From a virus (taxonomy: Duplodnaviria; Caudoviricetes): DNA of 64,000 bases. Of the stretch, positions 1 through 59,466 are shown in pieces; position 1 is the stretch's first letter; each line of letters starts with the position of its first letter. The stretch lies in IMG/VR virus record IMGVR_UViG_3300031993_000016; one strand, written 5' to 3'. The notes beneath the pieces were generated by a model, which was not told where the DNA came from, searched no databases, and worked only from the letters and a program-made list of their open reading frames with translations. A program made the position numbers and the translations under genes.

Positions 1-553
1 AGTTAGGTTTCCAATCATAGCTCAATATTACGTCATCAATTATAACTTCGTTCCAATCAAAATTGTCCTCGCTCTGTATACGAAATTCGACTATTCGGCC
101 TGTAACAGATAGTTTGACAAAATTATCTTTTAACCAAGTATAATACTCATCATTTAAACGATAAAAATCTACTCTATCATCATCTGACAATCTGCCGTAG
201 AACTCTTTCATATGACTTGTAAATATACTATGTGCAGATGATGAATACTTTAATTCTGCCCAACTCATAAATGATGTTAAATCTAACATTGAAGGTTTGA
301 ATACATTGGTCTCGTGTAACTCAGTTTTGAGATATTTTGCTAACCAATACTGCAACACAACTAATACTTCATCTTCATCAAACTCTCGAATATCAAATAA
401 AAATCCTGCATCAATAGGGGCAAGTAAATGAAGTCCTCTATCTAAGAAAGTAGTAGATGGTACATGCATTGTTACGTCATACAAGTTACCGCCCCTATCT
501 ACTAGATATGACCCATTTAAATATTTAGTTGTAGATGACGTATATCTTTTCAT
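1..553 (-). CDS. Hypothetical protein with MKRY leader, runs off the window edge; paralog of 41795..42205
   Basis: Hand translation MKRYTSSTTKYLNGSYLVDRGGNLYDV...FRIQSEDNFDWNEVIID; GAGGA RBS upstream; not in ORF track. Confidence 0.8.
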   Translation of the reverse strand, partial: MKRYTSSTTKYLNGSYLVDRGGNLYDVTMHVPSTTFLDRGLHLLAPIDAGFLFDIREFDEDEVLVVLQYWLAKYLKTELHETNVFKPSMLDLTSFMSWAELKYSSSAHSIFTSHMKEFYGRLSDDDRVDFYRLNDEYYTWLKDNFVKLSVTGRIVEFRIQSEDNFDWNEVIIDDVILSYDWKPN

Positions 554-570
554 GTACTTATCCTCGTATC

Positions 571-750
571 TTACAATGAGCTGATATCACAGCATCCGTT
601 ATAATGACTGTTACCATACTGAAGAGCTTCTCCGTAAGTAGTAAAATAATGGACGTCTTCTTCATATGGGTCATCCCATGAAACTACTTTGTAGTTCTTA
701 TAATATGGGCTAGTATCGGAATCTAAACTTGCATTGATATATCTTTTCAT
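571..750 (-). CDS. Small protein with MKRYINAS leader (59 aa)
   Basis: Hand translation MKRYINASLDSDTSPYY...DISSL*; GGGGG RBS. Confidence 0.7.
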   Translation of the reverse strand: MKRYINASLDSDTSPYYKNYKVVSWDDPYEEDVHYFTTYGEALQYGNSHYNGCCDISSL

Positions 751-762
751 AGTTAACCCCCT

Positions 763-918
763 TCAGCCTATCAAATCAACTTCAACTATTTCATCCCCTA
801 CATACCCTACACTTGGTGCAACCAAATCTGCATACTCGCCATAACCATCAAAGACTTGAACATCTATATCTTCTACACCATTTGCAACTGCCCACTCAAA
901 TAATTCTCTAATTGTCAT
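763..918 (-). CDS. Small acidic protein, tandem paralog of 945..1112
   Basis: MTIRELFEWAVANGVEDIDV...EVDLIG*; GGAGG RBS. Confidence 0.7.
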   Translation of the reverse strand: MTIRELFEWAVANGVEDIDVQVFDGYGEYADLVAPSVGYVGDEIVEVDLIG

Positions 919-944
919 GTTATGAACCTCCTTATATTGATAGT

Positions 945-1112
945 TTATTGAATCAACTCAACTTCGTATTCGCCACCATTTTCAAAGATACTGCCAGTAG
1001 CAACGAATGGATCGGTTAATGGTGAAATATCACCATAATTATTATATATCTTGATCTCAAGATCAAGTGCGTCCTCTGTTTTAGCCCATTGGTATAATTC
1101 TCTAATTGTCAT
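945..1112 (-). CDS. Small acidic protein, tandem paralog of 763..918
   Basis: MTIRELYQWAKTEDALDLEI...EVELIQ*; GGAGG RBS. Confidence 0.7.
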   Translation of the reverse strand: MTIRELYQWAKTEDALDLEIKIYNNYGDISPLTDPFVATGSIFENGGEYEVELIQ

Positions 1113-2629: not shown

Positions 2630-4077
2630 CTATCATTTACCTCCTTTGCATATGTAATCATCTAAGCACAGTCGATCCAGCTTGCCCCAAGCTTCAGATA
2701 TGCGGCTCAGAAGCAATTTAGCTTGAGTCTTTGTTGCAGGTACTCGAAGCAAGATGTGCATATTGTTATTCATTATGACAACACGATTGTCATCATAATC
2801 AATGGTAGAGGCATGATCCAAATTGATAATAATATTATCTGTCTCACTATATAGTATCACTCTTCGCACCTCGCTTTCAAAATTAGAATCGCATTATTTG
2901 CCAAAATGATCTAGCATACATCGTTTAACAGCCGATATGAGTTCATCTCCATCAACTGTGTATCGCTTCTCATCAACCTCAAGTTCTACTTGTCCGTGCA
3001 TAAACGCATTATGAATCTTTATAGGCATTTGTGCAGGATTTGAATAATCAGTTATTTCTGTCGTTATCTTCATTCTTTACCCTCCAATTTTGTTTTAAGT
3101 ATTTGAATTGCCTCAAAGCACTTGGTCGCTGATGATGTGTCGAAACTTGACAGCCATTCGTGGATACCGTTGTTAATCCTAATGTATTTCAAGGCATAAC
3201 AATAATCTATCTGTGCTTGGTCACAATGATTTCTGCAACAACAGTTATAACAAGTAATGCACTCTATTAAATCACTCATCATCCTCACCACCTATCTTTA
3301 ACCCAGATATCCAAAGTTGCTCTATATGCGCCAAATCTTTCGTCAAATTCTGTCTCTATAGGCATCTGCGTTATGTTGTCCGAAAAAGCCTTCACCAAGT
3401 TGTGTTTCAGTAAATCCATTTCCAAGTCTTTAGGCACAGAAGCAACCTCTTCTGCTCTAATTGACGCACACAATCGTAAATGATTTAATTCCGGTACTTC
3501 TCGTATGATTTTAATAGGCTGATGCTTTAAGAATCTTACTTCGTCCTTAAGCGCCCTGATAATATTCGTCTTGCGTTCTTTATTCATTGTCCACCCCTTC
3601 AATTACTGGTGCATTATTTATAATTCCGACTGCATAGCATAATCCCTTATGTATCGGCTTATTTCGTTTCCACTTAACATCGTCATTCGTCTCAAGAGAT
3701 TCTTGCAGTTCATGAATCTGCTGAACAAGCAAATCTTTATCTACTAAATTCCTTGATGGAGATTGTAAAGATTCAAGGCGTTTGATAGCACTGCCAAGAA
3801 CCTCCCAATAATACACATCTCCCCATGTTTCAGACGTGTTCCTCAATAGCATCAGTCCTGTGATAATCTCTTCATCATTCATCTCCCTCACCCCCCTCCT
3901 TTGCCTCTTCCATCTTATTCTTAAGCCATTCACCAACTCGGTCATGCACAAACATAAGGTCTAAAAATAATGCTATTGTTAATATCCAAGAGCTATTATA
4001 TTTGCAGATAAAATATGGAATTATAATTATTATGACCGAGATAATTGATGTTAATACTGCAATTAATATTCTCTTTA

Positions 4078-4398
4078 TCATTCCGCATCCCCCTCTCTGT
4101 ATGGTGATGGTAACTCTCGCCATGCTATAACGCCAAAGTCATTCCAGTCTGTTTCGCCCTCGTCATATATCCAAAACCAACTTGTATCGACTTCATACAT
4201 ACCACCGCTATACATCGTCACAAGATACTTTCCCTCTTCACTCGGAAGTCGTTCTGAACACGGAATCCACCGCTGTGATTCAAGTGCTTGGATTGCCGAT
4301 ACTAAGAATTGCCTAGCTTCTGACATCGGTTCATCTCCTCTACTCTCCAACGCTTTATCCCAATTAATTCCATATTGTATTAGTTCTTCATTCGTCAT
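4078..4398 (-). CDS. DUF551-like protein
   Basis: MTNEE...RWIPCSERLPSEEGKYLVT...VIAWRELPSPY. Confidence 0.65.
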   Translation of the reverse strand: MTNEELIQYGINWDKALESRGDEPMSEARQFLVSAIQALESQRWIPCSERLPSEEGKYLVTMYSGGMYEVDTSWFWIYDEGETDWNDFGVIAWRELPSPYREGDAE

Positions 4399-4403
4399 CT
4401 TCG

Positions 4404-4592
4404 TCACCCTCCTTTGTATGGGCTTGGTAACGGCATCCATGCAATTATATTTCTTTTCCAATGTTCTTCATCTTGTTTCCAAAAATACCTTGGATATACA
4501 ATCCTACTTTTCCCATCAGTACATATAGCTGTAACAATCACGTTCTCAGCATGTTTTGGTAATCTATCTTTCACTGAAATCCACTCACTCAT
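4404..4592 (-). CDS. DUF551-like protein
   Basis: MSEWISVKDRLP...IIAWMPLPSPY. Confidence 0.65.
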   Translation of the reverse strand: MSEWISVKDRLPKHAENVIVTAICTDGKSRIVYPRYFWKQDEEHWKRNIIAWMPLPSPYKGG

Positions 4593-5315
4593 TCCGCTCA
4601 CCTCCAATTAGCTTAATAAACCACTCAAATGTCTCTTGACTGTTAAAGCTTGCTATCTTAGTTTCGCAATTCCCTTCGAGAATTGAGATAGTCGGCTTCT
4701 TGCGATAAGGCTTGAATGTGGAATCTGAAAACATAATCTTGTATTTACCCATATTGATTGAACATGTCATTCCGCATCCTCCTCTCTGTATGGTGCGTTC
4801 CACCAGCTGCCACGAAAACTTGTAACATCATCTAAATTTGTTATGGCGATATAATCATCTTCAGCTATCATACTATTTGGAAACACCGCCTTAATAACAT
4901 CGCCATTCGTCACAGTTCCACGCTTATCAATCATTATCTGTATTGTTTTTGTCATCTTGCTCCTCCTCTCTGAATGGCTGTGGTAACTCACGCCATGCTA
5001 TAACGCCATAGCCTAAATTAGTAGTATTATTTAATATCCTAATTGCTCGGTCTTTCTCTTCTATGAACATATTCATAGGAGCTTCTGTATCTTCATTCGT
5101 CATTCGCTATCATTCCCTTCACATAAGCATCATATTTTTGCACAATAATTCTTCGTTTTTAAAAAATTTATTCTCAGCAAATCTTCCATATGGATTAGTC
5201 CATTTCAAATAAGTAAGGATTCCGCTTTTATATACTTTAATTACGTTATAGGCTAGTTCAGCAGAGTCATCATAAATCACATCATCTTCTTTTATTCGTG
5301 ATAATTCTTCATTCG

Positions 5316-5656
5316 TCATTCCGCATCTTCCTCGCTTTCTGCCTTATATGGTTCTAATAGTGGCATCCATGCAATAACGTCAGCACAATCCCATTCTTTC
5401 TGTTTTTTTCCCTGTACACAGCCATGTTGGTTTCTATATAAACATCTCCAGAATAACTACCTTTCCATTTAGTAGTGACAAGGTAACAATCCTGCTTTTC
5501 TGGCAACCTCTCGGTAACTGGAATCCACCGCTGTGCTTCAAGGGCTTGGATTGCTATTGTTAAAGCTTCGTGTATTGATGCCCTGTAATCTGTCAATACA
5601 AAGACATCATTATCTCGTTGGTCTTTTAATAATAAGATTGCTTCTTCATTCGTCAT
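5316..5656 (-). pseudogene. DUF551-like gene with a frameshift at an A7 run
   Basis: RWIPVTERLP in frame 0; VIAWMPLLEPYKAESEEDAE* continues in the -1 frame after 5403-5409. Confidence 0.6.
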
Positions 5657-6952
5657 CTTCGTTATCCTCCTATACATCAGCATATATTGCTATTACAGGT
5701 CTCCAGTATTTTTCATATTTCTGAAGCTCAGTCTCAACAAGTTTGTTCCATTCGTCATCAGAAATATATTCAACATCAATTTTGTTTCCGAGCATATATT
5801 CCAAATCCTCTTGAAATTCATCTCTATCTGAATATACTTTCGTTTCATCTACGTCCTGTTCACAATCAAGTATTTCACCTATTTTAAATTTAAGTTCTGG
5901 AGCATACCACCAACGATAATCATCATCCGTCGCAAACTCACTTCCAACTAATACTACTATTGGATAGTCTGGATGCTCTTTTATAAGCTCCTTTAATTCA
6001 TCTGTTTGCTTTGTAAACATATTTAATGGCTTGTATTCATTCGTCATCTTCGTCACCCTTTCCACTTGTATGTTTTCAACCTTCTGAACAATTCTACAAA
6101 GTCACCATCTAAATCAGCTAACCGTTTAATGGCTTTATCATAATTTCTTCTTATCCAAGCAATGGATTCACAATCCCTCGGACAGAACCAATCATTTGCG
6201 TTACATAGATAGCACAGATTCTTACACATTTGGTCGGCATCATAGCCGTATTCCTCTTTCGTCTCTTCAAGAGTCATCTTCGTCATCCCCCTTATCAATA
6301 TACGCTTGTGATGCTTTACAGAGAATTTCAGGATCATTTTCAAGTTCCTTAATACACTTCCAAACATAATTAGGAATTGCATTTGCATTGTGATCCCATG
6401 CACGCAGCTTTCGAATAAGCTTTTCCGAATCTATCAATTTCATTCGTCATCCTCCTCATAAGGATTGTAGTAATAATGCCAACCGTATCTCTCATAGTGT
6501 TCAAATCTACGCATGATGCACCTCCCTATAATTTACCTTTCAACCTCTGAGAACTCATCAAACAGATCCTCTAATTCTGTCATGTAATATGCATCCGACA
6601 TCTGTGCATCTACATCGTCTCGCCACGCTGTAATTACATCTTGACATCTCTGCAGGAATTCCTCAAGCTGAAATATCTTATAAGTAGCTGCATCGAAATC
6701 TTCACGAGGTACTGCAGCAATCAACGGCTGATTTTCTAAGAACCACTTAGCATCACGTATGTCTTGCGTAGTATCTATAACAGGTACTAATCCGCAATCT
6801 AAATCACGTATCGCCTTATCTATATCAATTAGTCTCATATTAGTTACACCTCCATTTGATAATTTGATAATCATAACGAATTTCTATGTAACACATAACG
6901 ATTTTACATAGAAATAGCCGATGAGTATTTCATCGGCTGATTCTGGTAGATA

Positions 6953-7279
6953 TCAATCTAACTTTACAACATCTTCAATTGACCATATTTCTGAATGCAT
7001 TTTAGATTTAGCTACTCGCTTAGCATCATTTTCATCTTTTGCATCTACATAGATGGAAGCTAAATTGCGTGTAGTGTTTAAATAATCAACCCGATACTTG
7101 TGTAAATGTTCAGCTGTAGTGGCTTGCATATCGTCAATATATTCGATAGCTTCTTTTGCATTACTGAAATCGGTACGGCCTGTACCATGTCGTCCAGTGT
7201 ATATGTAAAATACGCCATCTTTGTCATATATGGTTACACCTTTATATGTTTGATGTGCTGCTGAAATATATCGTTTCAT
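6953..7279 (-). CDS. Hypothetical protein with MKRYISAA leader
   Basis: ORF track; AAGGTG RBS before MKRY. Confidence 0.75.
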   Translation of the reverse strand: MKRYISAAHQTYKGVTIYDKDGVFYIYTGRHGTGRTDFSNAKEAIEYIDDMQATTAEHLHKYRVDYLNTTRNLASIYVDAKDENDAKRVAKSKMHSEIWSIEDVVKLD

Positions 7280-9327: not shown

Positions 9328-11472
9328 CTATGATGAAAATCCCCAACCAATACCAATTGAACCTTCAGGTACATCTGTTATATTAGGTGCTGTGTTTGAG
9401 ATATACAACCGCATTGGGGCAGCTATTGGAGTACCGCTATAGCCTTGATAAGATGTTGTTGCATCATGCCATTCATAAACGTGGTCATAATAATCACCTG
9501 GAGTTTTTACACGATATACAAATCCGGGAAGCGGTGTAGATGCATTAGCAGCGGTAGGTGTTGAGAATGTAGATAACCATGTCTTAGAATACAACGTTGC
9601 GCCGGATACAATCCATGCATCTACACAATTAGTATTTGGACCGAATTCAAGATATGGGCCATAACTGTAATTATAAGTTAAGGTTTCTTTTGCTGATTTC
9701 AATCTCAGACCTAATATGTCGATGGCTCTGTTGTTTCTAAGAGCATTTAGTAATGCTGCCCAAGATAAATCATTATCCGAATTACCATGTGTAAGACGAA
9801 TAGGTGCAGTACCGATGTTGTTTTGATTAGACGGATTAGAAGAAATCTTCATACCTAATACATTTTGATTAAATTCACTTTCGCTTAAATCACGAAGCTG
9901 TGTATCTAATAGTAATGTAAGTGCTGATTGCTTGCCGACTTTTGTCTTAAATACTGTTGGTCTACCTGCACCTTCAAGTGTATCTTGATAGTTATTTGTT
10001 GCACTGATTCCAGGAGCTATGAATACTTGGTCAGAATAACTAGTTCCCGAATCAACTGCAGTATACATATCTGAATAAGTGTTTGAATAGTTGTATACGT
10101 AGAACTGCTCTACGTCAGCTACGTAGAATGAAGTGTACTGTGTCTTATCTGTGTATGCTTGTCCGACACCAGTTTGCACAATCATCTGAAGTCTGCCATC
10201 AGCTCCTCTACTTATTGCATGTGTACCAGGAAATGTAGCCTCATATTGGTATAATCCGTCACGTCCTTGATCACTCATCATTTTAATGGTACCCGGAGCC
10301 ACCACATCTAAAGGATTAAGGAAATGTGCACCAGTTGCATTGATGAATGTACCGTATAATGCTGGTGGGTATATTCCGTTTCTTTGATAAACTGTTAAAA
10401 CAGATTCGCCATCATCTGGAACAGTACCTAATGTAGAAAAATTAGTTACATCATATTGATATCTAGGATTATGCGGATTATCAGAAAATCTTTCCATTCT
10501 ATCTTGATAATATGAATCAGGATTGTAGAACGTTTCAGGTTTACTTGCTTGCATATCTATTACAGATATATCTTTGATACCTTTGTAGGTTGGATCTGCT
10601 ATCTGACCAGTCTCAGGGTCTATAGTAGATGCTGTAGGTGTTACAAGGCCACGTTCATATCCGCTAGTAGCAAAATATCCAATATAAGAATTAGGTACAC
10701 TGAATACAATTTTAGCTGCCCAAGGGAACACTGCAGGACCTAAGAAATCTCCATCAGATGGTGAATTAGTATCGAGTGTAGTATCTGTACCAGAAATACC
10801 TGCAAGTACAGATCTTATGCTAAATCCCGTGAGTAGTACTAATGGATTGCTGGTTATTTTACCTCGTACATGTAGACGAATGGTTGGGTATGAATTTGCA
10901 CCCAAATTAGCTTGGAAATCACTTTGAGGTGGTTGAAATTCTTGATCAGCTTCGCTCCATACACCTGGTTGTAATACAACGCCATCTACAATTTTCAAAT
11001 AATCTACTAACTGCTGCTTCTTAGTAGTATTCCAATCTTGTAATGTTTTTATAGGAACTTTGTTAGTATCTAAATTATCCGCAGATGTCATTTCACCATC
11101 CGGTGCATTTCCTGTACCTGCATAATTAGCAATCAAGCTTCCATAATCTGTAATGCGCGTTGCCCAGTTATTAACAAATACACTACTATCTACATCACCG
11201 TCAAAGAACTGAGCTACAATAGTATTTGCTGCAGCTAATCTAGATGTTGCAGGTAACTGTATCTGTAACATGGTATGACCATCATCGGCAAGTGATGGAT
11301 CAGTATTAGGTACTTTCAATAACATTGAACTACCATTAGTTAAACTTGAAGCTAACCATTCACGTTCTGTTGCAGGCGGCGTGTCTGGATCTTCGCTAAG
11401 ATGCTGTTTTACATATACCTCGTACGCAGAGAGCCCGCACACTCTACCTTCTGACCAAATTTCTTTAGGCAT
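9328..11472 (-). CDS. Putative tail/baseplate structural protein (714 aa)
   Basis: GLSAYEVY...TEREWLASS motif typical of tail-fibre N-termini; C-terminal RLYISNTAP...PEGSIGI. Confidence 0.55.
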   Translation of the reverse strand: MPKEIWSEGRVCGLSAYEVYVKQHLSEDPDTPPATEREWLASSLTNGSSMLLKVPNTDPSLADDGHTMLQIQLPATSRLAAANTIVAQFFDGDVDSSVFVNNWATRITDYGSLIANYAGTGNAPDGEMTSADNLDTNKVPIKTLQDWNTTKKQQLVDYLKIVDGVVLQPGVWSEADQEFQPPQSDFQANLGANSYPTIRLHVRGKITSNPLVLLTGFSIRSVLAGISGTDTTLDTNSPSDGDFLGPAVFPWAAKIVFSVPNSYIGYFATSGYERGLVTPTASTIDPETGQIADPTYKGIKDISVIDMQASKPETFYNPDSYYQDRMERFSDNPHNPRYQYDVTNFSTLGTVPDDGESVLTVYQRNGIYPPALYGTFINATGAHFLNPLDVVAPGTIKMMSDQGRDGLYQYEATFPGTHAISRGADGRLQMIVQTGVGQAYTDKTQYTSFYVADVEQFYVYNYSNTYSDMYTAVDSGTSYSDQVFIAPGISATNNYQDTLEGAGRPTVFKTKVGKQSALTLLLDTQLRDLSESEFNQNVLGMKISSNPSNQNNIGTAPIRLTHGNSDNDLSWAALLNALRNNRAIDILGLRLKSAKETLTYNYSYGPYLEFGPNTNCVDAWIVSGATLYSKTWLSTFSTPTAANASTPLPGFVYRVKTPGDYYDHVYEWHDATTSYQGYSGTPIAAPMRLYISNTAPNITDVPEGSIGIGWGFSS

Positions 11473-11483
11473 GGTATGTCCTC

Positions 11484-12290
11484 CTATTCATCTATCTTAA
11501 ATGTTAAGTCTTTAGCTTTTCGATTCTCTTTTATTGCAAGATTAATAGTTTCTACGTCCATATTATTATCTCTAGCAGCTGCGGATCGACTAGAATAATG
11601 AATATCTCGTTCAACACAATATATCTTAACTGCTCGTCCTTGAGATTTTATTCTCTGTCGTATTGCAGCATGAATTTTATTGCATCTGTCTACATCTACT
11701 ATATCATCTTTATGAAGTTGATAATAATCTTCGGATATGATATGAAACATCCAACCTCGCCCATTATGGGACCTCTTATGTTTATGAATATTATCATGTA
11801 TGCATTCAGATTTTATATATTTCTCTGCAGATTTAATAGATTCAAATATCTCACCTGTGTCATCACATTGAACACGAATTGCAACTACATCTGTTGCTTT
11901 GCATCCGTTTATTCTAGATTGTTCAGGATTAAATAAACCCGTAGCAATTGCATGTTGAGTATTATCTACATAAGTTATCCATTCTAAATTATCTATTGAA
12001 TTGTTTTGTTTATTTCCATCTATATGATTTACACAAGGTAGATTATTTGGATTAGGTAGGAACGTCATTGCTATTAATCTATGAACAGGATATGTTGTTT
12101 CTACACCAGATTTATTCAGTGTTATGTTGTAGTATCCTTGATTTTCAAATGGTGCACGAACAACACCTTTTCGAACATATACATATTTACCATGTTTAAC
12201 TTCCCTATCTAAGCTTCTTATCCTACCTTGATCAGAAGCTTGATAGTAGCTTTCATATCCTGGTATATCTGACCAAATTTCTTCAGGCAT
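11484..12290 (-). CDS. NUMOD4-HNH homing endonuclease
   Basis: EEIWSDIPGYESYYQASDQGRIRS (NUMOD4); VHRLIAMTF...VNHIDGNKQNNSIDNLEW (HNH); C-terminal NUMOD1-like repeats; RBS favours ATG 12290. Confidence 0.9.
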   Translation of the reverse strand: MPEEIWSDIPGYESYYQASDQGRIRSLDREVKHGKYVYVRKGVVRAPFENQGYYNITLNKSGVETTYPVHRLIAMTFLPNPNNLPCVNHIDGNKQNNSIDNLEWITYVDNTQHAIATGLFNPEQSRINGCKATDVVAIRVQCDDTGEIFESIKSAEKYIKSECIHDNIHKHKRSHNGRGWMFHIISEDYYQLHKDDIVDVDRCNKIHAAIRQRIKSQGRAVKIYCVERDIHYSSRSAAARDNNMDVETINLAIKENRKAKDLTFKIDE

Positions 12291-17577: not shown

Positions 17578-17608
17578 ATGATCACCTTCACAATATATTT
17601 GTATGTAT

Positions 17609-17900: not shown

Positions 17901-17911
17901 TTAAGTTTAAG

Positions 17912-18017: not shown

Positions 18018-18021
18018 TTCG

Positions 18022-44720: not shown

Positions 44721-45014
44721 TTAAACTAACTCCATTATTTGCATCATTGTATGGGCCATCCTCTGATGTTTAGCTGAAACTTTTTCAGGTACTTTATCTT
44801 CAGGATATGCAGTGTTTAATGCATAAGTTATATCGTCTTCATCAATCGAACGAGCGTATTTTAAAGATGACTCTACAAGATCACATTTATAATAGCTCCA
44901 ATGATATTTGTCTCGGAGTATCATATATATTGCGCCGCGAATTTCAGCAACATTACTTGGGTCGTCTACTTTGTAGATGTTATTGTCTATTGTTGATTTG
45001 ATAAATCTTTTCAT
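44721..45014 (-). CDS. Protein with MKRFIKST leader
   Basis: ORF with RBS. Confidence 0.7.
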   Translation of the reverse strand: MKRFIKSTIDNNIYKVDDPSNVAEIRGAIYMILRDKYHWSYYKCDLVESSLKYARSIDEDDITYALNTAYPEDKVPEKVSAKHQRMAHTMMQIMELV

Positions 45015-45105
45015 TGTGCGTTTACTCTCCTTGTCTATTAGATTCTTCTACTTATATGATCTCTGTATCTTCTCTTTATACATCTGACGAACTTAATCAT
45101 TTATA

Positions 45106-45313
45106 TTAAAGGTTGTTATTAAGTTGATATTCCCATCTTATTACTCCGGAATCAAATACTTGAACATATCCGTGAGACTCCATGACTCCTCGCTCTGTAT
45201 AGTTAGCGTCATGTAAATCATCAAATAAGTTTGGTAAATTAGATTTTTGACATTAATCTACGTGATGATTTAGTTTCAAATTCATCACCGCATATTGCAC
45301 AGATTCGTTTCAT
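45106..45313 (-). pseudogene. Internally deleted relic of the Zn-finger/nuclease/GNAT family
   Basis: RBS + MKRICAICGDEFETKSSR joined out of frame to CQKSNLPNLFDD...ESHGYVQVFDSGVIRWEY, matching the C-terminus of 46954..48852. Confidence 0.85.
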
Positions 45314-46942: not shown

Positions 46943-46953
46943 ATTGATACCTC

Positions 46954-48970: not shown

Positions 48971-51151
48971 TTAGCTTAATGAACTAAGATCAATACCTGC
49001 ACCGGCAGGTAATGCAATAAGATCTACGTAAATATCGTTTATAACTCCATTTACTAGGAGCCAAATTTTTCCAATAACAGTGTTAGCATTAACATGATCT
49101 AATTCATCAATGTCCGCTGACATCTGAACACGATAGCCATCGATTGCACCAACATTCTTCATTGTATCAAGAAGTGGTGTCACACCTGCATAAAACTTAT
49201 TATAAGCCTGACCATTATTATATTGGAATGTGATGCTTATTCCGCATTTGTAAACTACATCTTCTACTGCATTTACTAAGAAACGAGTTGAAAGATTTGC
49301 AAGTGCCTGATAAGTTGCAGGAGGTACTTCAAATAATGTTGAGTTACCCCAGATGTTTGTGCCGAGGTCTGGGATTGTTGTAAGTACGTTTACAGATACT
49401 CCGTCAAGTTTCTGCCATTTATCAAGTAATTTCTTTGGTACTGTGTAATCAAGTTTTCCAATTCTTACATTGTGTTGTCTATTTGTTGGAAGTGCCCATT
49501 CATACTGTGTAGGCTGATTGAGGATCTGTGCTCTTTGTATCATAAGTGCTGCGAATGAAGGAGATGCTTCACTCATTCTGCTTGTACCTACATACTGGAA
49601 TTGTGTCCATGGTGCAAAGAATCCACAATGTGTGTGGAAGAGTGATCCATTTACATCAAGTGCTGCGTTTACAGGTGTTACACGAGCTAACATCTGTACA
49701 TAACCTGCACGATCTGGATTAGCTTCATCCTCAATGTGAACGAACTTTCTTTCTACCATATGCGGTACATCAATGTAACCTGTTGCACATCTGCTGTAGT
49801 ATGCTACGTCCATTATCTTAAGGTTAAGCGGAGAGACTGGAATTGGACAAGATCCTGATGATGGTGTAGGATAATATGTACTGATGATTGTAGAATTATC
49901 TGTATACATGAAATAATCTTGATCATCCCAACCTGGGCTTATTACACGATTCGGGTTGTAAGAAAGTTTGTCTTTGAGAAGATCAAATACACCACCTACA
50001 GGCTGTCCATTTGAATCAACATAAGTACCGCCTACAAGATGTGTAAATAACCATTCTCTATAGTATAATGAACATTTTGTATCGTCATCAAGTGCAGCTT
50101 GTACAGTTGAATCAGCAACAGCGGTTGGATACGTATAAGTAGCTGAATTTGCAGCTACTTGGTAAGCTTCTGCCCAATCATATCTAGGTTTTGCAATGTT
50201 TTCAAATGACATTGTTCCGCTAGTATATGTTGTGATATAATCTGTACCAGCAGTAGCTGTTGTACTTCCAAGTATAGCAGCTGTACCAGTTGATGGAACT
50301 TCATCCCACTTTGTAGCGTCCCAGGCACCTGTTGTATCATCAGCCTTGCATTTATATACGTTACATTCATGATATACAAGTGCATCTTTTGCATATGTAG
50401 CAGTTGCATCAAATGCTGTAACCCCTGCAGTAGATACTACAATGTCCGCAGAAGTTGAAGACTCATCAACTGTACCAGTGATATTTGTAATATCCCAGAA
50501 CTTAGATTCAACTTCTTTGTAGTAAAGAATACTGTCTGTTGAATTAGCAGCATTGAATACAAGTGTCTTTGACTCAGCTGCAGTTTTTACACCACTAGAA
50601 TCTACAATATAAGTAATAATGTTCCAATAGAACTTAGTTGTTTGTGACTCCCTATCATAATAAGCAACTTTGCTAACTACAATCTGGAGATTATTTCCAA
50701 ATGTTCCAGGATACTTTGCTCTGAAACTGATAGTAGCTGCACTATCTGTATTATTCTTATACTGATACTGCGTAAAGCTGCCCTGTGCATAAGTTCCAGG
50801 GCACAGACGACATACAAGTATATCATAACCAGCAGTGAGTAATGTAGTTGCTATCTGATATGAATAATCTTTTGCAAGTCTATAACCTGCAGCAGGTCCA
50901 CGATAAGTAGATACAAATGCATCAAGTCCTGCCTGTGTAGCAGGAAATCGCTGCCAAGCGGTTTGCTCAAGCATATCGCTTACAGCATCACCATATCCAG
51001 CCCCACTTGGCTGAATACCAGAAGCAGCAGTTGGATCAAAGTATCCAGGACCCCAGCAAGATGTAATTGGAAGTGCTACGGTAGCATATCCACCATCTCC
51101 AACAGCCCAAGAATAATTTGTGCTGATTTCATTTATGACAATTTTAGCCAT
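48971..51151 (-). CDS. Tail sheath protein
   Basis: WGP; AKYPGTFGNNLQI; IWGNSTL...LSTRFL...FQYNN...GAIDGYRV...GKIWL C-terminal sheath domain. Confidence 0.9.
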   Translation of the reverse strand: MAKIVINEISTNYSWAVGDGGYATVALPITSCWGPGYFDPTAASGIQPSGAGYGDAVSDMLEQTAWQRFPATQAGLDAFVSTYRGPAAGYRLAKDYSYQIATTLLTAGYDILVCRLCPGTYAQGSFTQYQYKNNTDSAATISFRAKYPGTFGNNLQIVVSKVAYYDRESQTTKFYWNIITYIVDSSGVKTAAESKTLVFNAANSTDSILYYKEVESKFWDITNITGTVDESSTSADIVVSTAGVTAFDATATYAKDALVYHECNVYKCKADDTTGAWDATKWDEVPSTGTAAILGSTTATAGTDYITTYTSGTMSFENIAKPRYDWAEAYQVAANSATYTYPTAVADSTVQAALDDDTKCSLYYREWLFTHLVGGTYVDSNGQPVGGVFDLLKDKLSYNPNRVISPGWDDQDYFMYTDNSTIISTYYPTPSSGSCPIPVSPLNLKIMDVAYYSRCATGYIDVPHMVERKFVHIEDEANPDRAGYVQMLARVTPVNAALDVNGSLFHTHCGFFAPWTQFQYVGTSRMSEASPSFAALMIQRAQILNQPTQYEWALPTNRQHNVRIGKLDYTVPKKLLDKWQKLDGVSVNVLTTIPDLGTNIWGNSTLFEVPPATYQALANLSTRFLVNAVEDVVYKCGISITFQYNNGQAYNKFYAGVTPLLDTMKNVGAIDGYRVQMSADIDELDHVNANTVIGKIWLLVNGVINDIYVDLIALPAGAGIDLSSLS

Positions 51152-51407: not shown

Positions 51408-51448
51408 ATTTGTACTCTACCTCCTCATTTGATAACATTATTAAAGGT

Positions 51449-52623: not shown

Positions 52624-53588
52624 CACTATCACCACTTTCAGCTGCATTTTGAGCAATGATATCATCTATGCTATCAACTTCATCCATAAGCCAATCCCAT
52701 CTATACTGCTTGGTTTCACTCATATTAGTTAAATTAATTGCAGTACCTTCGATGAGAGCATCAGTGAATTCCTTTTCGCTAGGACTGTATCCGTTATTCA
52801 ACCAATCACCTAATGGATTAGATTGAAATGCTACAATTTTTGGCTCCCATTGTTGTACATGATTTTTATAATGCCATGTATTGATTATGCGAATTTTGTC
52901 ATAGCCTAATCCTCGAAGTGTCATCAGATATTCAATCTGAGGTCCGCTGATTCCTAATTTCTGTGCAAATTCAATTATGAATCCATATCTGCGAAGTTCA
53001 TTGAGAATAGCTTCTGCAGATAACTCTTCAGGACTATACTCATCTACATCAGATACAAGTACACCATCTGCTTCTAATACACATGCAAACAATGTACCAA
53101 TTACTGGGTGATCTACGCTTATGCGAAATCCTGTAAGTAAATCATTATTGAATAAATCCGCTATATGTATTCGTAATTCTCTGCTGTTATTAGATAAACA
53201 CTTTGGAAGATCTCTCCAATTAGTTATTCTATACTGCAGAGGCGGTTGATTCATCGTCACTATTACCACCTCTCATTTCTCTTACATGTCGTTTCAATTC
53301 AATCTGAAAAGGTTTCAATAAATCAAGATTGACACTTGGATATTCACTGAAGTAGGTAGCGATCATATCAATCTTGAGTTTGAAGTATAATACTCGTTTA
53401 TCTTCGGCACTGATTTCAGGATGCCGTTCAGCGAATATGAAATATCGAGTCACTACACTAGAAAATGCCTTATGTACTGTCGGATCATCTTGATCAAGCG
53501 TAGCTCGTTCAATAGTCCGGAAGTTACTTGAATTAAAATTTTTTAAATCCTTAAAGAAGAGTTGGGTTAACTCTAAACTAGAAAGCAT
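52613..53588 (-). other. Two hypothetical genes (52613..53254, 53229..53588) in the head module
   Basis: ORF track; overlapping and co-oriented. Confidence 0.6.
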
Positions 53589-55098
53589 TTGCCGGTCCTC
53601 CTTGTTCTGCAGATTCAGTTACGTCTACATTCCATTCTATTGCATTAGCACCAAGTTGTGGGAATACTTCAGAAAGAATTTCTACTAAAGCTGTTTGATA
53701 GTCTTTCTTATCAGATACACCTAAATTCTTAAGTAAATCTACAAGTGTTTGTGCTTGACTTAATGCGGAATCACGTTTTTCAAACTGTACAGTGGATTGT
53801 GTAGTGATAATTGGATTCATATGTAATTTGAACATATTAACAAATCCACTCATATTCCGTGCAATGAAATACTTGTTAATTGCGTCAGTCCAGCCCTGTA
53901 TGTATGCATTCTCAAGACGTTGTAAAGAATTAGCGTATAGTGCAGATCTTTGTGACAGTACAGAACCCGCACCACCTAAACCTTCATTAGATGAAAAGTT
54001 CATTGCTTCTTTCGGTACACCTAAAACTGATAACTTCTTATCCTGATAGTAATTAAGTAAATTATTATCAGCTTCGCTAGATTCTGCCATGTTTAAATCT
54101 GTAATAGATATTGCATCATTTCCATTTATCCTTGGAAGGTAAATGAGATTATTAGGGGATTGTGGGTTTACAAAACTCTGAGCATCTCCAGAAGCTGTAT
54201 TCAATGCTAACTGTTGCTCAATAGCATCTTTAATCTGCTGAAGAGCATCTCGAATCTCCTCCTCTTGCGTACCACATTCAACATTTAAAAATTTAATAGT
54301 TCTAGATAATGATGATAATACTACCGCATCTTCAAGTAACCCCAATGTTTGTGTAGGCTGTACAGCTCTAGACATAAGAGGTTCTGCAAACTGTATGTCA
54401 TAAGTTATAGGATCACCTTCAGAATCTACACTGTCAATCGTATAATCACCTAATAATCCACCTAATGTAAAATGTATACAAGCAGTTTCTGGAAGTATGA
54501 GTATCTCAGATTGTATAGCTTTATCATCCGGATCCATCAGATATCCAGTAGGCTCACCACGATGCCAAAGATGTATGATAGTTTCAGGTGGTATTTTATA
54601 CGATGGGATTATATCAAAATCTTCCTCTGGAATAGTATTATTATCAAGTGCAACATGCTTGTGTGTATACATTGAAGCACTGTCTTTGTATAAATAAGTT
54701 GTAGGTATGTAGAGATTACCAATGGTTGCTAATTCAAGTATATGATCTCTAGCATACTTATCAACTGCCCAACGTTTAAATAATGCGTTTACTATCTCAG
54801 CAGCTTGCTTACATTGTTTTGTATTATCTGCAGCTGTTGCCCATATGATCTCACCTGCAGTATTCGTTGTAGTAGCATCTGTTGCATAGTATGAAAGCGC
54901 TGTGCTGATCTGTGAATCATTTGCAAGTGCTCTCATAGTATCAATTTGAGTTTTAATATCTGCAAAACTTGTGTTACCGCGTATATCAGATATTCTATAT
55001 AAGGAACCTGTTATGACTGTTCTGAGCCAGGATTTCGGTCTATCTAGAAGCTTAGAACGTCTGGGCACTAATTTATCAAGCCATCGATTTTTCGCCAA
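53578..55098 (-). CDS. Portal protein (T4 gp20-like)
   Basis: MRALANDSQISTAL; LLEDAVVL; IYLPR.NG...ITDL; YYQDKKLSVLGVPK; near the terminase. Confidence 0.85.
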   Translation of the reverse strand: MAKNRWLDKLVPRRSKLLDRPKSWLRTVITGSLYRISDIRGNTSFADIKTQIDTMRALANDSQISTALSYYATDATTTNTAGEIIWATAADNTKQCKQAAEIVNALFKRWAVDKYARDHILELATIGNLYIPTTYLYKDSASMYTHKHVALDNNTIPEEDFDIIPSYKIPPETIIHLWHRGEPTGYLMDPDDKAIQSEILILPETACIHFTLGGLLGDYTIDSVDSEGDPITYDIQFAEPLMSRAVQPTQTLGLLEDAVVLSSLSRTIKFLNVECGTQEEEIRDALQQIKDAIEQQLALNTASGDAQSFVNPQSPNNLIYLPRINGNDAISITDLNMAESSEADNNLLNYYQDKKLSVLGVPKEAMNFSSNEGLGGAGSVLSQRSALYANSLQRLENAYIQGWTDAINKYFIARNMSGFVNMFKLHMNPIITTQSTVQFEKRDSALSQAQTLVDLLKNLGVSDKKDYQTALVEILSEVFPQLGANAIEWNVDVTESAEQGGPANAF

Positions 55099-55124
55099 TG
55101 TTCAATACCTCCTCTATAGAAATA

Positions 55125-56720
55125 TTAAAGGTTCTCAGCCAGATCTTTGTCGATATCATACTGTGTGAAGAATTCAGATTCAGACATGATAGGTACACGA
55201 CGCTTTCTAGCTTCAATAACAGCATGGCCATTGATGTTTTCTTGAGCATCACCAATAAGTACACAGTTAACATCATCAACTAATTCTGTTACAACATCTG
55301 CAGAATAACTACGCAGAATGTTGCTGATTTCATCAATGCTGCCATGCAAAAATGTTCCGGTAAGCATGATAAGTTTATCTCTAAATATTGGATCACCTTC
55401 AAACTTCTTAGTTTGTTTAACAAGATGAATGTTGCTAAGTTTGAAAAATTCTATGACATCCGAACAATTTTCATTATCAGATATCCAAGTGAAGAATCTA
55501 TTGAATGCACCGAGCTCTAATTCTAAATCTACTTTCATTCTATCAGGATGCTGCAGATAGTATTGTAAAGTCTGCATAGAATTGCTGCAAGCATCGCATA
55601 ACTGATTAATTTGAACCATGCTCGGAAGGATTGACTTCGGAATGATTGCCCTAAGCCCTTCAGATAATGTGACATCAACTTCACGATCTTTGTATGTAGC
55701 TTTATCAAATGTATCAAGTACAGAAAATATAGTACCAATTTCATCTGAATATACTCTATAGTCTTCAAATGACATAAGTGGAAGATGCAAACATTTACAT
55801 AACTGCAATACTCTAGGATATAATACAGAATTGCACTGAGGATCTGAGCATCTAACATTACCAGATGGTGGTACTACAATCTGTTTACCGCAGCATTCGC
55901 ATTGTATCTTATTAGATAACACAGAATCTCGCTTATTAGTAGATGCAGAAATACTATGGATTATAGCACTTTCAGAATTTCGAACTACTAAGCTGTCAAC
56001 TTGTACGTTGAATCTAACAATTGTAGAATATGGTACAGTCTGAATTTCATTAGTATCATAAGTTATGATACCAATAATATCACCAAATTCTGTGTATGTA
56101 CGAAGTACATCTACAACTATATCTTGTTTGAGTTGTATCTTTGGATAAGATATAGAATGGTCTCTGTGAAATACAATGTAGCTATCAATTAATGGGTAAG
56201 TAAATGGGTAGTTCTGTGTAACCATGTATCTGAATTTATCTTCAGTTATCTCACTAGGCATAACATATCCAGGAAGTAATGTAAATTTCGATGTAGATAA
56301 CCATTGTCTAGTAGCTACTGCACCCTTGAACTTAACTGATAAACTCTGGATGTCACCTGCATAGAACGTGAATGAATTTGGATCAGCTAAGTACAGCTGT
56401 TTGAATTCTGCTTGAATGGATTCTGGATGTTTTCGTAAAGACGACGCTACATCATTTGTTACAAATACACCACGAACATAAGACGTACCACCTGTAACCG
56501 ATATCTTATTAGGTATCTGCTTGTTTTTAAGAACAAGTGGTAGGATGGATTCAGTCTCATCTACCCATTCATCTTGTTCATGATTGAGCATAACTTTCTG
56601 GATCAATCCTTTATCACTATATTGAATAGTGACTGCTAATCCAAATGGTACAAGTGCTACATATTCACCTGACTGTAGTGACACCTCTCGACCTGATTGT
56701 AGAAGGTTTCTTACAAACAT
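55125..56720 (-). CDS. NAD-dependent DNA ligase-like protein, apparently catalytically inactive, with C-terminal BRCT
   Basis: YVALVPFGLAVTIQY where KxDG is expected; VRGVF; CECCG...CSDPQC; IMLTGTF...VLIGD...EARKRRVPIMSESEF. Confidence 0.7.
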   Translation of the reverse strand: MFVRNLLQSGREVSLQSGEYVALVPFGLAVTIQYSDKGLIQKVMLNHEQDEWVDETESILPLVLKNKQIPNKISVTGGTSYVRGVFVTNDVASSLRKHPESIQAEFKQLYLADPNSFTFYAGDIQSLSVKFKGAVATRQWLSTSKFTLLPGYVMPSEITEDKFRYMVTQNYPFTYPLIDSYIVFHRDHSISYPKIQLKQDIVVDVLRTYTEFGDIIGIITYDTNEIQTVPYSTIVRFNVQVDSLVVRNSESAIIHSISASTNKRDSVLSNKIQCECCGKQIVVPPSGNVRCSDPQCNSVLYPRVLQLCKCLHLPLMSFEDYRVYSDEIGTIFSVLDTFDKATYKDREVDVTLSEGLRAIIPKSILPSMVQINQLCDACSNSMQTLQYYLQHPDRMKVDLELELGAFNRFFTWISDNENCSDVIEFFKLSNIHLVKQTKKFEGDPIFRDKLIMLTGTFLHGSIDEISNILRSYSADVVTELVDDVNCVLIGDAQENINGHAVIEARKRRVPIMSESEFFTQYDIDKDLAENL

Positions 56721-56735
56721 TTAATTACCTCTCTT

Positions 56736-58646
56736 TCATCTTTTATATTTTGTATATGGGCCGGAAAACATTGACAAACCTTTGTATGCTGCATTCCGGT
56801 TATTAACAGATGCAATTGCAGAAGCTACATGACTTGGTTGCGGAGTTGGTTGTGAATGCTCAAGTGTGAGTGTGTAGCATGCTCCGCATACACAATCTGC
56901 TACGTCCTTTGACCCATTTGCAGGGTGATCTATTTTATTATTTACACGTTGCAAGTGAATTAATTCGTTATCACGTAATTCATTAGCAACTAATTCTATA
57001 CGTTGATCATATAATATGTTTTTCAAACCGATATATGGCTCTTCGGACCTATCAACTGAGATTTTAGCTGTTTTGAACCCTTGACCACTGAGTACTTCTC
57101 TCATATAACTAGACTGATACTGGTCAGTTGAAATTGTTCCTATGTTGAACCCGTTTCGTCGTAACCAAAGTATGAAATTAACTACTTTCTGAAAGGATAA
57201 TCTATCCCCTGTCGGTCGTTGTATACCTACAGAAAATATCTCTTTGAAGTATGGCATACTGATTTTTCTACCTTCAAAATCAGTCACTACCTTACTGCCG
57301 TCTACGCATACACCTGCCATACCTGTTCTGTCACCAGTTTCAGATAAGTCAAGATGTATATTTAGTAAACAACTTTTCAATCGACTAGGTACTGCTTCAA
57401 GATGAAAAAATTCTTCTATTGTATTTTTATCTTGAGTTCCTACTTCTATAACATCAGTATAAAACGGGTTATGCCGAGTATCTGTAATATTAGGGGTAAT
57501 AGCTGCTTGCGTGATAAATCCCATAGCACCTATGATAGAAATACCTGCGACATCTCTTAAAGATATGTCATAATCTGCAAGAAATCGAGTTCGCAGATCT
57601 GCAGGAGCTTCGATAACTTGATAACCTTGACGAATGTATTCTTGCCGATGTTCTTCGTCATCATTTTCTTCTGGTATAACAAACCCTTTCTTGTATCGAT
57701 CTCCTACCGTAAAATGAAATACTTCTTTGCTGAATCGTTCTTTAGGTAATACCTTCCATTGAGGTTGATCTACTAAATAAAGATGAGAATTACCTGCATT
57801 CATCTGCGTTTCGATATGATCAGACAAGAAATCCGAATCTGTATTTTTTGACGAAGCTGCTACAATCTTTCCATAAACTTCTCCGTTCAAAGAAAACGTA
57901 CCAGCAATACGTGCATTAATAGTGTCATATAAACTTTTCATATGTTGCTTTGCTAACGATATGTCTTTTATACCAGATTTAGCAAAGTTGCATTCGTCAA
58001 TAACGCAACAAAATGTAGTTTTTCCTAAGAAATTTGTTGCAGATGATCCAGCAACAATTTCTATATCGCCGCTATCTGGAACATATATCTGGTTTACAGT
58101 GCCTCGATTCATTGCACCATGATCCATGAACCAAGGTGAATGTTTCATTGTTTGATTAAAATCTGCAAATGCTACCCCCTCAGCTAAATCTTTTGTAAGA
58201 TTAGCAAATGCTATTGTCATCTTAGCAGTAGGCTGCAGATGAAAATACTTTTGCGGCTGTCGATACAACATCAATTTATATAACATATATGCAACGATTT
58301 TGACAGCAGTTGCACTTTTGCCCAAACGCGTAGCTCCTGACAAAATTATCTCATTATACTGATTGCCATGGTTGAATATATCTGTTAAAGTTTTTCGCCA
58401 AAACGGATAAACTTGTGCGCCATTATCAGTACTTTGACCTAAATAGTAAGGATCACTTATAAAACGGTCAATAGAAACTGGCACTTCTGTAAAATCCGCA
58501 AGCCATATATCTCGATATGTTTGAGATTCTCCATGTGTTGCAACTTCTTCAAGTATTTGGCGTAATATAACCTGTTCTGCAGGGGGTGAAGATGCATATA
58601 TGCTTTGGATACGTTCAATTACATTTTCATCAATTAAATCTGCCAT
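56736..58646 (-). CDS. terL: Terminase large subunit
   Basis: Walker A GATRLGKS; Walker B CVIDE; nuclease IHLDLS..GD; STDQYQS; KIDHP..GSKDVAD. Confidence 0.92.
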   Translation of the reverse strand: MADLIDENVIERIQSIYASSPPAEQVILRQILEEVATHGESQTYRDIWLADFTEVPVSIDRFISDPYYLGQSTDNGAQVYPFWRKTLTDIFNHGNQYNEIILSGATRLGKSATAVKIVAYMLYKLMLYRQPQKYFHLQPTAKMTIAFANLTKDLAEGVAFADFNQTMKHSPWFMDHGAMNRGTVNQIYVPDSGDIEIVAGSSATNFLGKTTFCCVIDECNFAKSGIKDISLAKQHMKSLYDTINARIAGTFSLNGEVYGKIVAASSKNTDSDFLSDHIETQMNAGNSHLYLVDQPQWKVLPKERFSKEVFHFTVGDRYKKGFVIPEENDDEEHRQEYIRQGYQVIEAPADLRTRFLADYDISLRDVAGISIIGAMGFITQAAITPNITDTRHNPFYTDVIEVGTQDKNTIEEFFHLEAVPSRLKSCLLNIHLDLSETGDRTGMAGVCVDGSKVVTDFEGRKISMPYFKEIFSVGIQRPTGDRLSFQKVVNFILWLRRNGFNIGTISTDQYQSSYMREVLSGQGFKTAKISVDRSEEPYIGLKNILYDQRIELVANELRDNELIHLQRVNNKIDHPANGSKDVADCVCGACYTLTLEHSQPTPQPSHVASAIASVNNRNAAYKGLSMFSGPYTKYKR

Positions 58647-58654
58647 ATTATCAC

Positions 58655-59170
58655 CTAACTTGCACTATCAACGGTTTCAAGTGCTCGGAGTACTTGTTGT
58701 GCACTAGTTCTAAGTGTTTCTCTAGACTCTTTTGTAAGTACACCAGCTGCATTTGTTTCTGATTGCTCTATAACTGCAGGAGAGAGTGTTTCGATATTAA
58801 ATAACTCGCTGTTTAAATATGGTTCAAGTAACTTATGAGACTCAATCATATTTTTCTGTAGTTTCTCTTGTATAGTTAAAAGTGACATCCATGTAGTTGG
58901 GTTATCATCATCCATCATATCAATAGATGCATCAATTGCTTTATACAATTTGTCTTCAATCTTATCCATCATCTCAATATATTTAATAATTCTAGATACT
59001 TGATGATATACTCGAAGTATTGTTATATTTTTGATAGCTTGTCCTGCTGAATATATGTCTTCATTACAACACAATAAGGACGCACGCATCTTTGCGACGT
59101 CCTCTTTTTGTTTATGTATTAATGGATCGGTTGATATGATGCTTTGATTGACGGTTTCAATATTCGGCAT
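58655..59170 (-). CDS. Helical protein, candidate terminase small subunit
   Basis: Size and position directly upstream of terL only. Confidence 0.35.
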   Translation of the reverse strand: MPNIETVNQSIISTDPLIHKQKEDVAKMRASLLCCNEDIYSAGQAIKNITILRVYHQVSRIIKYIEMMDKIEDKLYKAIDASIDMMDDDNPTTWMSLLTIQEKLQKNMIESHKLLEPYLNSELFNIETLSPAVIEQSETNAAGVLTKESRETLRTSAQQVLRALETVDSAS

Positions 59171-59208
59171 ATTCGTTCTCCTAATTATTCAGATTTAAGA
59201 TGAAAAAT

Positions 59209-59466
59209 TTACTCAGATTGAAGATCGAGTAATACTACACTGAGGTTTGCAATAGCTTCTTTAGCCTTTGAGTCACCAGTTTCGTTTGCACAAACTGCTA
59301 AACAATCAATTGCTTGATGGATATGCTCAATGCAATCACTATAGCAAGGTGCAGCTGTCGGAGCTTCTTCGATCACCTCTAATTCAGTTACCGGAGCTTC
59401 ATCGACGGTTTCAAGTGTCTCATCAATGAACTCATCTGCTTTAATATTCTTCTTTGATATCTTCAC
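59209..59466 (-). CDS. Acidic protein with MKISKKNIKAD leader
   Basis: ORF track. Confidence 0.65.
   Translation of the reverse strand: MKISKKNIKADEFIDETLETVDEAPVTELEVIEEAPTAAPCYSDCIEHIHQAIDCLAVCANETGDSKAKEAIANLSVVLLDLQSE

Follow-up and report, generated by a model that had tools for sequence, protein, structure and literature searches.

A short N-terminus shared by unrelated phage proteins is probably a T4-style capsid-targeting propeptide in a clade of gut and rumen phages

Many unrelated proteins encoded in a 64,000-nt stretch of a Caudoviricetes genome (IMG/VR record IMGVR_UViG_3300031993_000016), hereafter the window, to which feature coordinates refer unless another genome is named, begin with the same short peptide. 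Its consensus, MK[RK][YF][IV][KR][SAT][SA], was found on 9 to 13 of the approximately 110 window proteins, against 0.006 to 0.14 expected. We suggest, with a probability of roughly 0.7, that this tag is a capsid-targeting propeptide in the style of phage T4, paired with a protease that cuts after Ala or Ser and carried by a much enlarged set of cargo proteins. By analogy with T4, residues 1-4 (M-K-R/K-aromatic) would probably attach a newly made protein to the scaffolding core while the prohead assembles, and residues 5-8 ([IV]-x-[AS]↓[SATGND], the arrow marking the putative cut) would be where the gp21-type prohead protease of the phage itself cleaves. The protease of this clade appears to cut after a small residue (Ala, Ser or Gly), not after Glu, and after head assembly it would remove the seven-residue tag. 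Because the protein bodies show no excess of further sites, they would remain whole inside the head and probably exit together with the DNA when a host is infected. The second half of the tag is the same motif as occurs in the capsid propeptide, in the scaffold, at the protease N-terminus and at module borders of cargo proteins; cleavage, packaging, ejection and any effector role are what we infer from the sequences.

The 13 core starts listed in the original prediction were all ATG codons of minus-strand open reading frames (ORFs) with a GGAG/GAGG Shine-Dalgarno-like sequence 5-12 nt upstream, and all read as claimed. A core pattern, K[RKT][YF][IV][KRTSN] at residues 2-6, was present at the N-termini of 9 of the 110 called window proteins. 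Its one occurrence in 18,485 internal positions gives an expectation of 0.006 hits and the product of the N-terminal column frequencies gives 0.14, while none of the 340 internal methionines in the window proteins was followed by it. In the relative G001, described below, there were 26 core hits against 0.02-0.39 expected. When 39 tagged proteins from the window and G001 were pooled, conservation was confined to residues 1-8 (M, K, R/K, Y in 36/39, I/V, K/R, S/A/C/T, S/A/N/T) and was lost beyond. The proteins behind the leader are mostly unrelated, as had been stated: without their first 12 residues they showed nearly no mutual similarity in BLASTP, most having no match at E 1e-3. The few paralogues were pairs within G001, and the window proteins starting at 31375 and 32429 with their G001 relatives. 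The view that the peptide and not the DNA is conserved also held, with synonymous variation in the codons for Arg (CGA, AGA, CGT, CGC), Tyr (TAT, TAC) and Ile (ATT, ATC, ATA).

Some details of that prediction needed amendment. Four to six of its looser variants obey the same [IV]-x-[AS] rule, but the start at 25659 (MKRYSKF) lacks that half and is probably no member, and 7947 (MRITCGS) is doubtful. The start at 59466, given among the ATG starts, is a GTG codon. The start at 553 (MKRYTSS; ORF 2-553, minus strand, leaving the window), counted as a core member, is degenerate here, though its relative in G005 (43% identical) begins MMKRYITAN. The downstream parts had been called mostly acidic, and the difference is weak (median isoelectric point 4.8 for tagged proteins versus 5.3 for the rest). 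The helicase (23563) and the SbcC-like gene (21248) do lack the tag. Three features go beyond what had been described: the looser variants share the cleavage rule, the tag appears to consist of an N-terminus-specific part (MK-R/K-aromatic) and a cleavage part, and the putative cut falls after Ala or Ser, against Glu in T4.

Relatives were recovered with the large terminase subunit of the window (56736-58646, minus strand, itself untagged) as query, and were IMG/VR contigs of rumen metagenomes with 58-75% identity. A DNA pattern combining a Shine-Dalgarno site with the tag matched 58 stretches in IMG/VR, largely big rumen or gut contigs. There were 26 DNA-pattern hits in G001 (253.5 kb, rated complete), 21 in G005 (171 kb), 22 in G006 (163 kb, with terminal repeats), 6 in G008 and 3-7 in each of G010-G014 (125-145 kb). 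All were on the coding strand, and the reversed pattern used as control gave 0 hits in G001, G005 and G006 and 0-2 in G010-G014. On our own gene calls, strict to loose tag counts were 8-10/110 in the window, 22-30/406 in G001, 20-25/243 in G005, 22-27/208 in G006, 17-18/170 in G002 and 9-12/250 in G008. Across the clade, 20-50 genes per genome were tagged, or 5-13% of genes. The leader of G002 was altered to MKRWIHA[SAT] or MKRVI[RK]AS and G008 also had MVRYI, the constant part being [IV]-x-A/S-[SAT]. A longer leader type with the same cleavage core, M-K-x-F-T-x-x-P-K-x-x-[IV]-x-[AC]-[AS], was seen in G005 (e.g. 9435-10220, 10945-11190, 35075-35563 and 58572-59075) and in the window (44313-44636). 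Two tagged genes of G001 with 91% protein identity (11203-11523 and 248497-248817) lie near opposite contig ends, among other similar pairs, which suggests either terminal redundancy or duplicated cargo arrays.

The relatives possess a T4-type head module. In G001, G005 and G006 a gp23-type capsid protein (PF07068, 57-61 bits) is encoded directly after a protein of ~500 amino acids (aa), whose first 170 residues match the gp21 prohead protease (PF03420) and whose remainder is a coiled coil ending in LVTL. By its domains, the latter protein is a protease-scaffold fusion. PF03420 scored 36.4 bits in G005 (cut-off 27) and fell just below the cut-off in G001 (25.6) and G006 (24.7). It was assigned to most of the 120 listed homologues of the fusion, and the protease domain could be aligned with a protein of Listeria phage LIS04 that is annotated as 'peptidase U9, T4 prohead protease'. 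The PF07068 capsid protein was also found in G009, G010, G013 and G014. Both families were represented in the relatives, and each in 120 further homologues. At the sequence level, this head module and the shared cleavage-type motif support the T4-like tag, removed by a prohead protease, that had been proposed.

To quantify that motif, [IV][KRTQMH][AS][SATG] was counted per position. Capsid propeptides had a density of 0.050, which is 35-fold above background (p 1e-18), and scaffold halves one of 0.0175 (12-fold, p 2e-13), compared with 0.0024 in the mature capsid protein, 0.0020 in the protease domain and 0.0014 in all other proteins, taken as background. The 120 further protease-scaffold proteins behaved similarly, with 0.0134 in the scaffold half versus 0.0019 in the protease domain. 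The N-terminal stretch of the capsid protein is variable and basic, is 67-94 residues long and contains ITAS, ITAG or VTAA three or four times, the final copy coinciding with the onset of strong conservation (..[IV]-T-A-A-TNT[TS]NI..). In 120 further capsid proteins this border reads I/V (120), T/M (116), A/G (120) and A (120), followed by TNT. Since [ILV]-x-E is missing from 113 of these 120 propeptides, and Glu wholly from 14, a T4-like cut after Glu cannot mature these capsid proteins. P0182, one of these capsid proteins and probably from the same genome as the window, shows ISAA, VTAS, VTSG, VMAS and ITAA↓TNTTNI.

At the DNA level the window had no close cultured phage. By capsid protein (~25% identity) the nearest cultured phages were Streptococcus phage vB_SagM-GXN1, Bacillus phage vB_BceM-HSE3 and Listeria phage LIS04, which share the gene order of the clade. 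Their homologous capsid border carries T4-like sites of the L-x-E↓S/T type (..MTE↓ST, ..LLE↓TT and ..LLE↓ST), and their aligned protease N-terminus reads SIVE↓S or TLVE↓G, whereas in the clade it is TIKA↓T, PIVA↓D or KIVS↓D. The site type, Glu in the cultured relatives and Ala/Ser in the clade, thus switches in step across three independent substrates. No shared leader was detected among the 71 starts of the first 50 kb of HSE3.

The tag's two parts can be told apart in the family of a 222-aa window protein (31761-32429, minus strand). Its MKKYIKS↓NAV start is followed by a basic core that is conserved (YQNKRNPNKFIE..) and by another domain, with a late-type promoter motif, discussed below, at 32466-32476. 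The AF2 model of this protein (pLDDT 80.7) has disordered residues 1-9 and two domains joined by a disordered linker; a Foldseek search with it against PDB and viral models returned uncharacterised phage proteins only. Its family had 39 members in the protein collection, 38 of which carry the core motif used for counting, and 34 of these 38 start with a leader variant. Where an extra module stands between leader and basic core, a second site was found 8-14 residues before the core, reading VMSA↓S, VISA↓S, IRGA↓T, ITGA↓S, ITSA↓S, IQSA↓T, IKAS↓Q or IEAS↓Q; a site lies within 22 residues of the core in 37 of the 38. The aromatic residue 4 is missing from these internal cargo sites and from the capsid and scaffold sites, so that M-K-R/K-Y is specific to true N-termini. 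The bodies of tagged proteins had motif sites at background density (0.0015 versus 0.0019), so they would be cut once, like the T4 internal proteins.

The closest known system, judged by these features, is the capsid-targeting sequence (CTS) of T4. In T4 the peptide MKTYQEFIAE is carried by IPI, IPII and IPIII (and Alt), is removed by gp21 and suffices to load foreign proteins (PMC8442874, PMC9026906, PMC3012670). Residues 4 and 7 of the CTS serve targeting and residues 8 and 10 processing, residue 4 being Tyr (PMC9026906). The internal proteins are 'cleaved only once' (PMC8442874) and vary between related phages (PMC8442874, PMC9026906, PMC3012670). The tag described here is likewise a short N-terminal peptide on unrelated proteins with an M-K-x-Y start, and it ends in a gp21-type protease site with an aliphatic P3 (I-A-E↓ in T4, putatively I-K-A/S↓ here). 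An N-terminus-specific targeting part followed by a processing part fits the T4 division of labour, the head module has gp20, gp21 and gp23 homologues, and a single cut with retention in the head would be common to both. Yet only M-K-x-Y and the aliphatic P3 are actually shared with MKTYQEFIAE and its Glu at P1. The tag has 7 residues and not 10, and P1 would be Ala, Ser or Gly; to our knowledge, all characterised S77 (gp21) proteases cleave after Glu ([LI]-x-E or [ASG]-x-E). Unlike T4, moreover, the clade has 20-50 tagged genes per genome rather than 3-4, its protease is fused to the scaffold and some of its cargo is polyprotein-like with internal sites.

Three other systems resemble the tag in part. 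In the giant phages phiKZ, 201phi2-1 and SPN3US, a gp21-type protease (gp175/gp245) trims head-protein propeptides at A/S/G-x-E, SPN3US gp245 cutting at A-x-E (PMC10052503). As proposed here, N-terminal propeptides of many head and ejection proteins are trimmed and long propeptides hold several sites. However, the giant-phage enzymes cut after Glu, their propeptides are non-uniform and 20-254 residues long, and each phage has about nine known substrates, most head proteins being uncut. The assemblin of pseudorabies virus cuts at an R-site, YLQA-T, and an M-site, VQA-S, and is fused to a scaffold (PMC4498786). As motifs, the herpesvirus R-site Y-[VL]-[KQ]-A↓[ST] and M-site V-x-A↓S are nearly identical to Y-[IV]-[KR]-[AS]↓[SA] here and are the closest match to it, a likeness of motif only. 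The two systems also have in common a protease-scaffold fusion, the herpesvirus scaffold being cut near its C-terminus. Assemblin has the same fold as gp21 and, like it, a Ser-His-His triad. The herpesvirus sites differ in serving internal self-processing and not as an N-terminal cargo tag, and in profile scans the clade protease scored as Pfam S77 (gp21), with membership of S21 not found; the herpesvirus-like specificity may be convergent. Finally, DarB of phage P1, an anti-defence protein of the Dar anti-restriction group, enters the capsid by way of an N-terminal signal (first 30 residues sufficient, 6-10 critical) that directs a reporter there as well (PMC9024508). DarB shares with the tagged proteins a capsid-directing N-terminus, putative in the present case, although its signal is known for one protein, has no shared cleavable consensus and belongs to a different head system.

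Several observations weigh against a capsid-targeting propeptide cut after Ala or Ser. What is known of the capsid protein and protease was read from relatives and from P0182, whose genome assignment was inferred, and the cleavage rule was derived from motif positions only. [IL]-x-E is likewise frequent in the coiled-coil scaffolds of the 120 protease-scaffold proteins (0.017 per position); taken alone, the scaffold count is therefore compatible with cutting after Glu, which the capsid propeptides exclude. If all 20-50 tagged proteins of a genome are packaged, the head would have to accommodate many different proteins, perhaps each in few copies. Tagged genes showed no excess of variability between genomes over untagged ones (Fisher p 0.3-0.8) and were not preferentially preceded by the late-type motif (10/41 versus 9/64, not significant). 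Family and fold searches (Pfam, PHROG, ESM Atlas, Foldseek) assigned none of the cargo proteins to a known family or fold, and none resembled known internal or anti-defence proteins. Among 20 tagged or neighbouring proteins scanned with Pfam and PHROG, the only hit was a leucine-rich repeat of BspA type in a G005 cargo protein. A complex prediction that paired the protease domain of G001 with a tagged protein of 68 aa scored 0.00, but it was run without controls and counts neither way.

One real uncertainty of the propeptide reading is whether the tagged proteins are retained and injected or are in part assembly helpers. As protease substrates within the prohead, they could act in assembly or in the core and be expelled or degraded at maturation instead of being delivered. 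A conserved small, very acidic protein with a basic propeptide (25903-26259, minus strand; MSIHIRRGARIVA↓A) has the character of a core protein of the T4 gp67/gp68 kind. It is kept in all five relatives, its basic N-terminus ends in [IV]-x-A-A in four of the five (the G006 call starts differently), and it is likely a prohead core protein rather than variable cargo. Tagged genes being no more variable than their neighbours also fits helpers. The tagged bodies, however, lack scaffold-like internal sites (0.0015 versus 0.013-0.018 per position) and should therefore survive maturation intact, and most tagged proteins are unrelated and lineage-specific, which suits conserved assembly factors poorly. 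We regard it as unlikely that helpers account for the tagged proteins in general.

It is very unlikely, in our view, that the tag is an expression feature, either a translational ramp (Lys/A-rich codons with Tyr/Ile at codons 4-5) or an N-terminus that stabilises the protein and was selected for high yield. AAA or AAG at codon 2 and A/T-rich codons 3-6 are classic for efficient starts, and Lys/Asn-Tyr and Lys/Asn-Ile at codons 3-5 are reportedly favourable. Yet the portal, sheath and terminase of the window and the capsid protein of the relatives, among them genes expected to be the most strongly expressed, do without the tag, and its codons drift synonymously while the peptide is kept. The small residues 7-8 have no role in such models, and the four-residue core recurs far from start codons, at internal module borders and in capsid and scaffold.

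An address for another machine is extremely unlikely, whether for export or membrane insertion, for a host protease (Prp-like, or signal peptidase) or as an N-degron timing protein lifetimes. Small residues at -1 and -3 do resemble signal peptidase I sites, and the host enzyme Prp cleaves capsid proteins of staphylococcal phages at A↓S. The residues after position 8 are nevertheless polar or acidic; no hydrophobic segment follows the tag, which thus lacks the hydrophobic core of at least 10 residues after a basic N-terminus that marks a Sec or lipoprotein signal peptide. The Phe-Phe of Prp sites is missing as well, and the motif tracks phage head proteins (Glu-type in HSE3, LIS04 and GXN1, Ala/Ser-type in the clade) and not a host feature. 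Least credible is a functionless remnant of common descent or recombination in a gene family. A few tagged proteins are paralogous and tagged genes often stand in arrays, but most bodies lack similarity at E 1e-3, and the eight residues are kept despite codon drift across phages with 58-75% identical terminases and shift in concert in G002 to MKRWIHA[SAT]/MKRVI[RK]AS with [IV]-x-A-[SAT] preserved, which together imply selection on the peptide.

On balance, and with less assurance than for the propeptide itself, we favour a wider proposal. Throughout an abundant uncultured gut and rumen clade with T4-type heads (>1,200 protease clusters, 120-250 kb genomes), the P1 residue recognised by the gp21-type protease would have changed from Glu to Ala/Ser, as in herpesvirus assemblin, and a seven-residue tag would bring dozens of unrelated proteins and polyproteins (5-13% of genes) into the capsid. 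If so, the packaged and probably injected proteome could be read directly from sequence, giving a sequence-only rule that lists the capsid contents of a large and common uncultured phage group. The list would be a candidate catalogue for first-minute host take-over and anti-defence functions. The capsid-targeting principle of T4, known from three or four proteins, would extend to dozens of proteins in one genome and to polyproteins that can be cleaved. A shift within the gp21/assemblin family to the cleavage rule of herpesviruses would bear on the relationship between phage and herpesvirus maturation, and a seven-residue loading tag with a defined cut site would be a tool for protein delivery by phages of gut Firmicutes-like hosts.

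The protease-scaffold fusion (e.g. G001 168897-170420, equal to L017:8897-10420; homologues P0040-P0159) fell into 1,231 clusters at E<=1e-5 in a set of 5.8 billion proteins, many of them on ~145 kb gut contigs. Its C-termini are conserved as LVTL or IVTI. Beside the catalytic Ser the clade has GISVRGAGD, versus GISSRG[SA]G[RQ] in the Glu-type relatives, a candidate for a pocket difference that accompanies the change at P1. Gene calling in G008 (81100-82000) gave no single ORF for the protease part, which lies upstream of the scaffold ORF, and a frameshift, an insertion or an assembly error is possible. A profile search of the fusion against PDB sequences yielded only coiled-coil noise for the scaffold half.

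The late-type motif ACCTTNWATAW had 12 hits in the window (sites within 12353-63709), on the coding strand only, where 1.2 were expected, and is likely a late promoter element. It stands 28-99 nt before the portal gene, the sheath operon and the tagged genes starting at 45014, 32429 and 30043, with close variants before 26259 and before 1938, the gene just upstream of the tagged 1729. Other tagged genes lie behind a TCGTTATA-type motif. The original prediction had placed nearly all tagged genes in units headed by the motif of portal and sheath; this is so for some of them, and the overall association is not significant. T4 internal-protein genes have mixed early and late transcription, and the partial link between tag and late-type motif would be compatible with such a pattern. 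A second motif, AAWTCGTTATAG, distinct from ACCTTNWATAW, precedes nucleases, tRNAs, replication genes and some tagged genes (e.g. 31375) by 30-80 nt; minus-strand examples are at 48904, 42236, 35696, 33026, 31424, 27758, 24007, 18613, 18257 and 6901.

The minus strand carries nearly all genes of the window (GC 36%), including all those listed here. This GC content and the strong Shine-Dalgarno sites point to a Firmicutes-like host. Canonical MKRYIKS↓SAV opens a 181-aa protein (42259-42804) with no match in Pfam or PHROG. Nearby are a 109-aa protein (42820-43149; MKRYIRS↓STL), whose G005 homologues have the longer leader type M-x-x-F-T-x-x-P-K..[IV]x[AC][AS], and a 69-aa protein (43383-43592; MKKIITA↓SND) without an aromatic residue at position 4. 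These are followed by the 107-aa long-leader variant (44313-44636; MKRFKVYPQSVKA↓S), of a leader type also found in G005, and by a 97-aa protein (44721-45014; MKRFIKS↓TID) with a late-type motif at 45103-45113. Beside the 222-aa protein are tagged proteins of 83 aa (31488-31739; MKIAITS↓ASS), 186 aa (30815-31375; MKTYIKT↓SDS), 207 aa (29420-30043; MKRYVTT↓SSY; late-type motif 30061-30071) and 108 aa (28262-28588; MKRYIKS↓ATT). The leader of the 186-aa protein is kept in all its homologues (G001, G002, G006 and G008). Further tagged proteins have 108 aa (6953-7279; MKRYISA↓AHQ), 197 aa (1136-1729; MVKYIKA↓TST) and 59 aa (571-750; MKRYINA↓SLD). A 413-aa protein (24039-25280) has a propeptide-like leader, MKIHRSKITA↓S; an ESM Atlas look-up gave no result for it, and no family or fold was found. 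The 85-aa acidic protein with the GTG start (59209-59466; (M)KISKKNIKA↓D) has homologues in G001 and G006.

Untagged structural genes of the window, likewise on the minus strand, include a T4 gp20-type portal protein (53578-55098; PF07230, E 6e-14; phrog_213), with a late-type motif at 55122-55132, and the tail sheath (48971-51151; phrog_23), whose operon is headed by such a motif at 51438-51448. Other genes encode a UvrD-type helicase, an SbcC-like ATPase, HNH/DUF7487 nucleases and many small ORFans. Three minus-strand tRNA genes at 17608-18102 encode tRNA-Gln(ttg), tRNA-Leu(taa) and tRNA-Leu(caa). Large Zn-finger/DUF7487/HNH nucleases are encoded at 45419-48852 and 35759-37576, one with a weak Mom-like C-terminal match, and show ~73% DNA identity over 150 bp to homing endonucleases of Campylobacter T4-like phages. 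At 3580-6050 (minus strand) about eight small ORFs (58-125 aa) begin MTNEE, MNDEE or MTNED, a second recurring N-terminus that probably marks a paralogous family.

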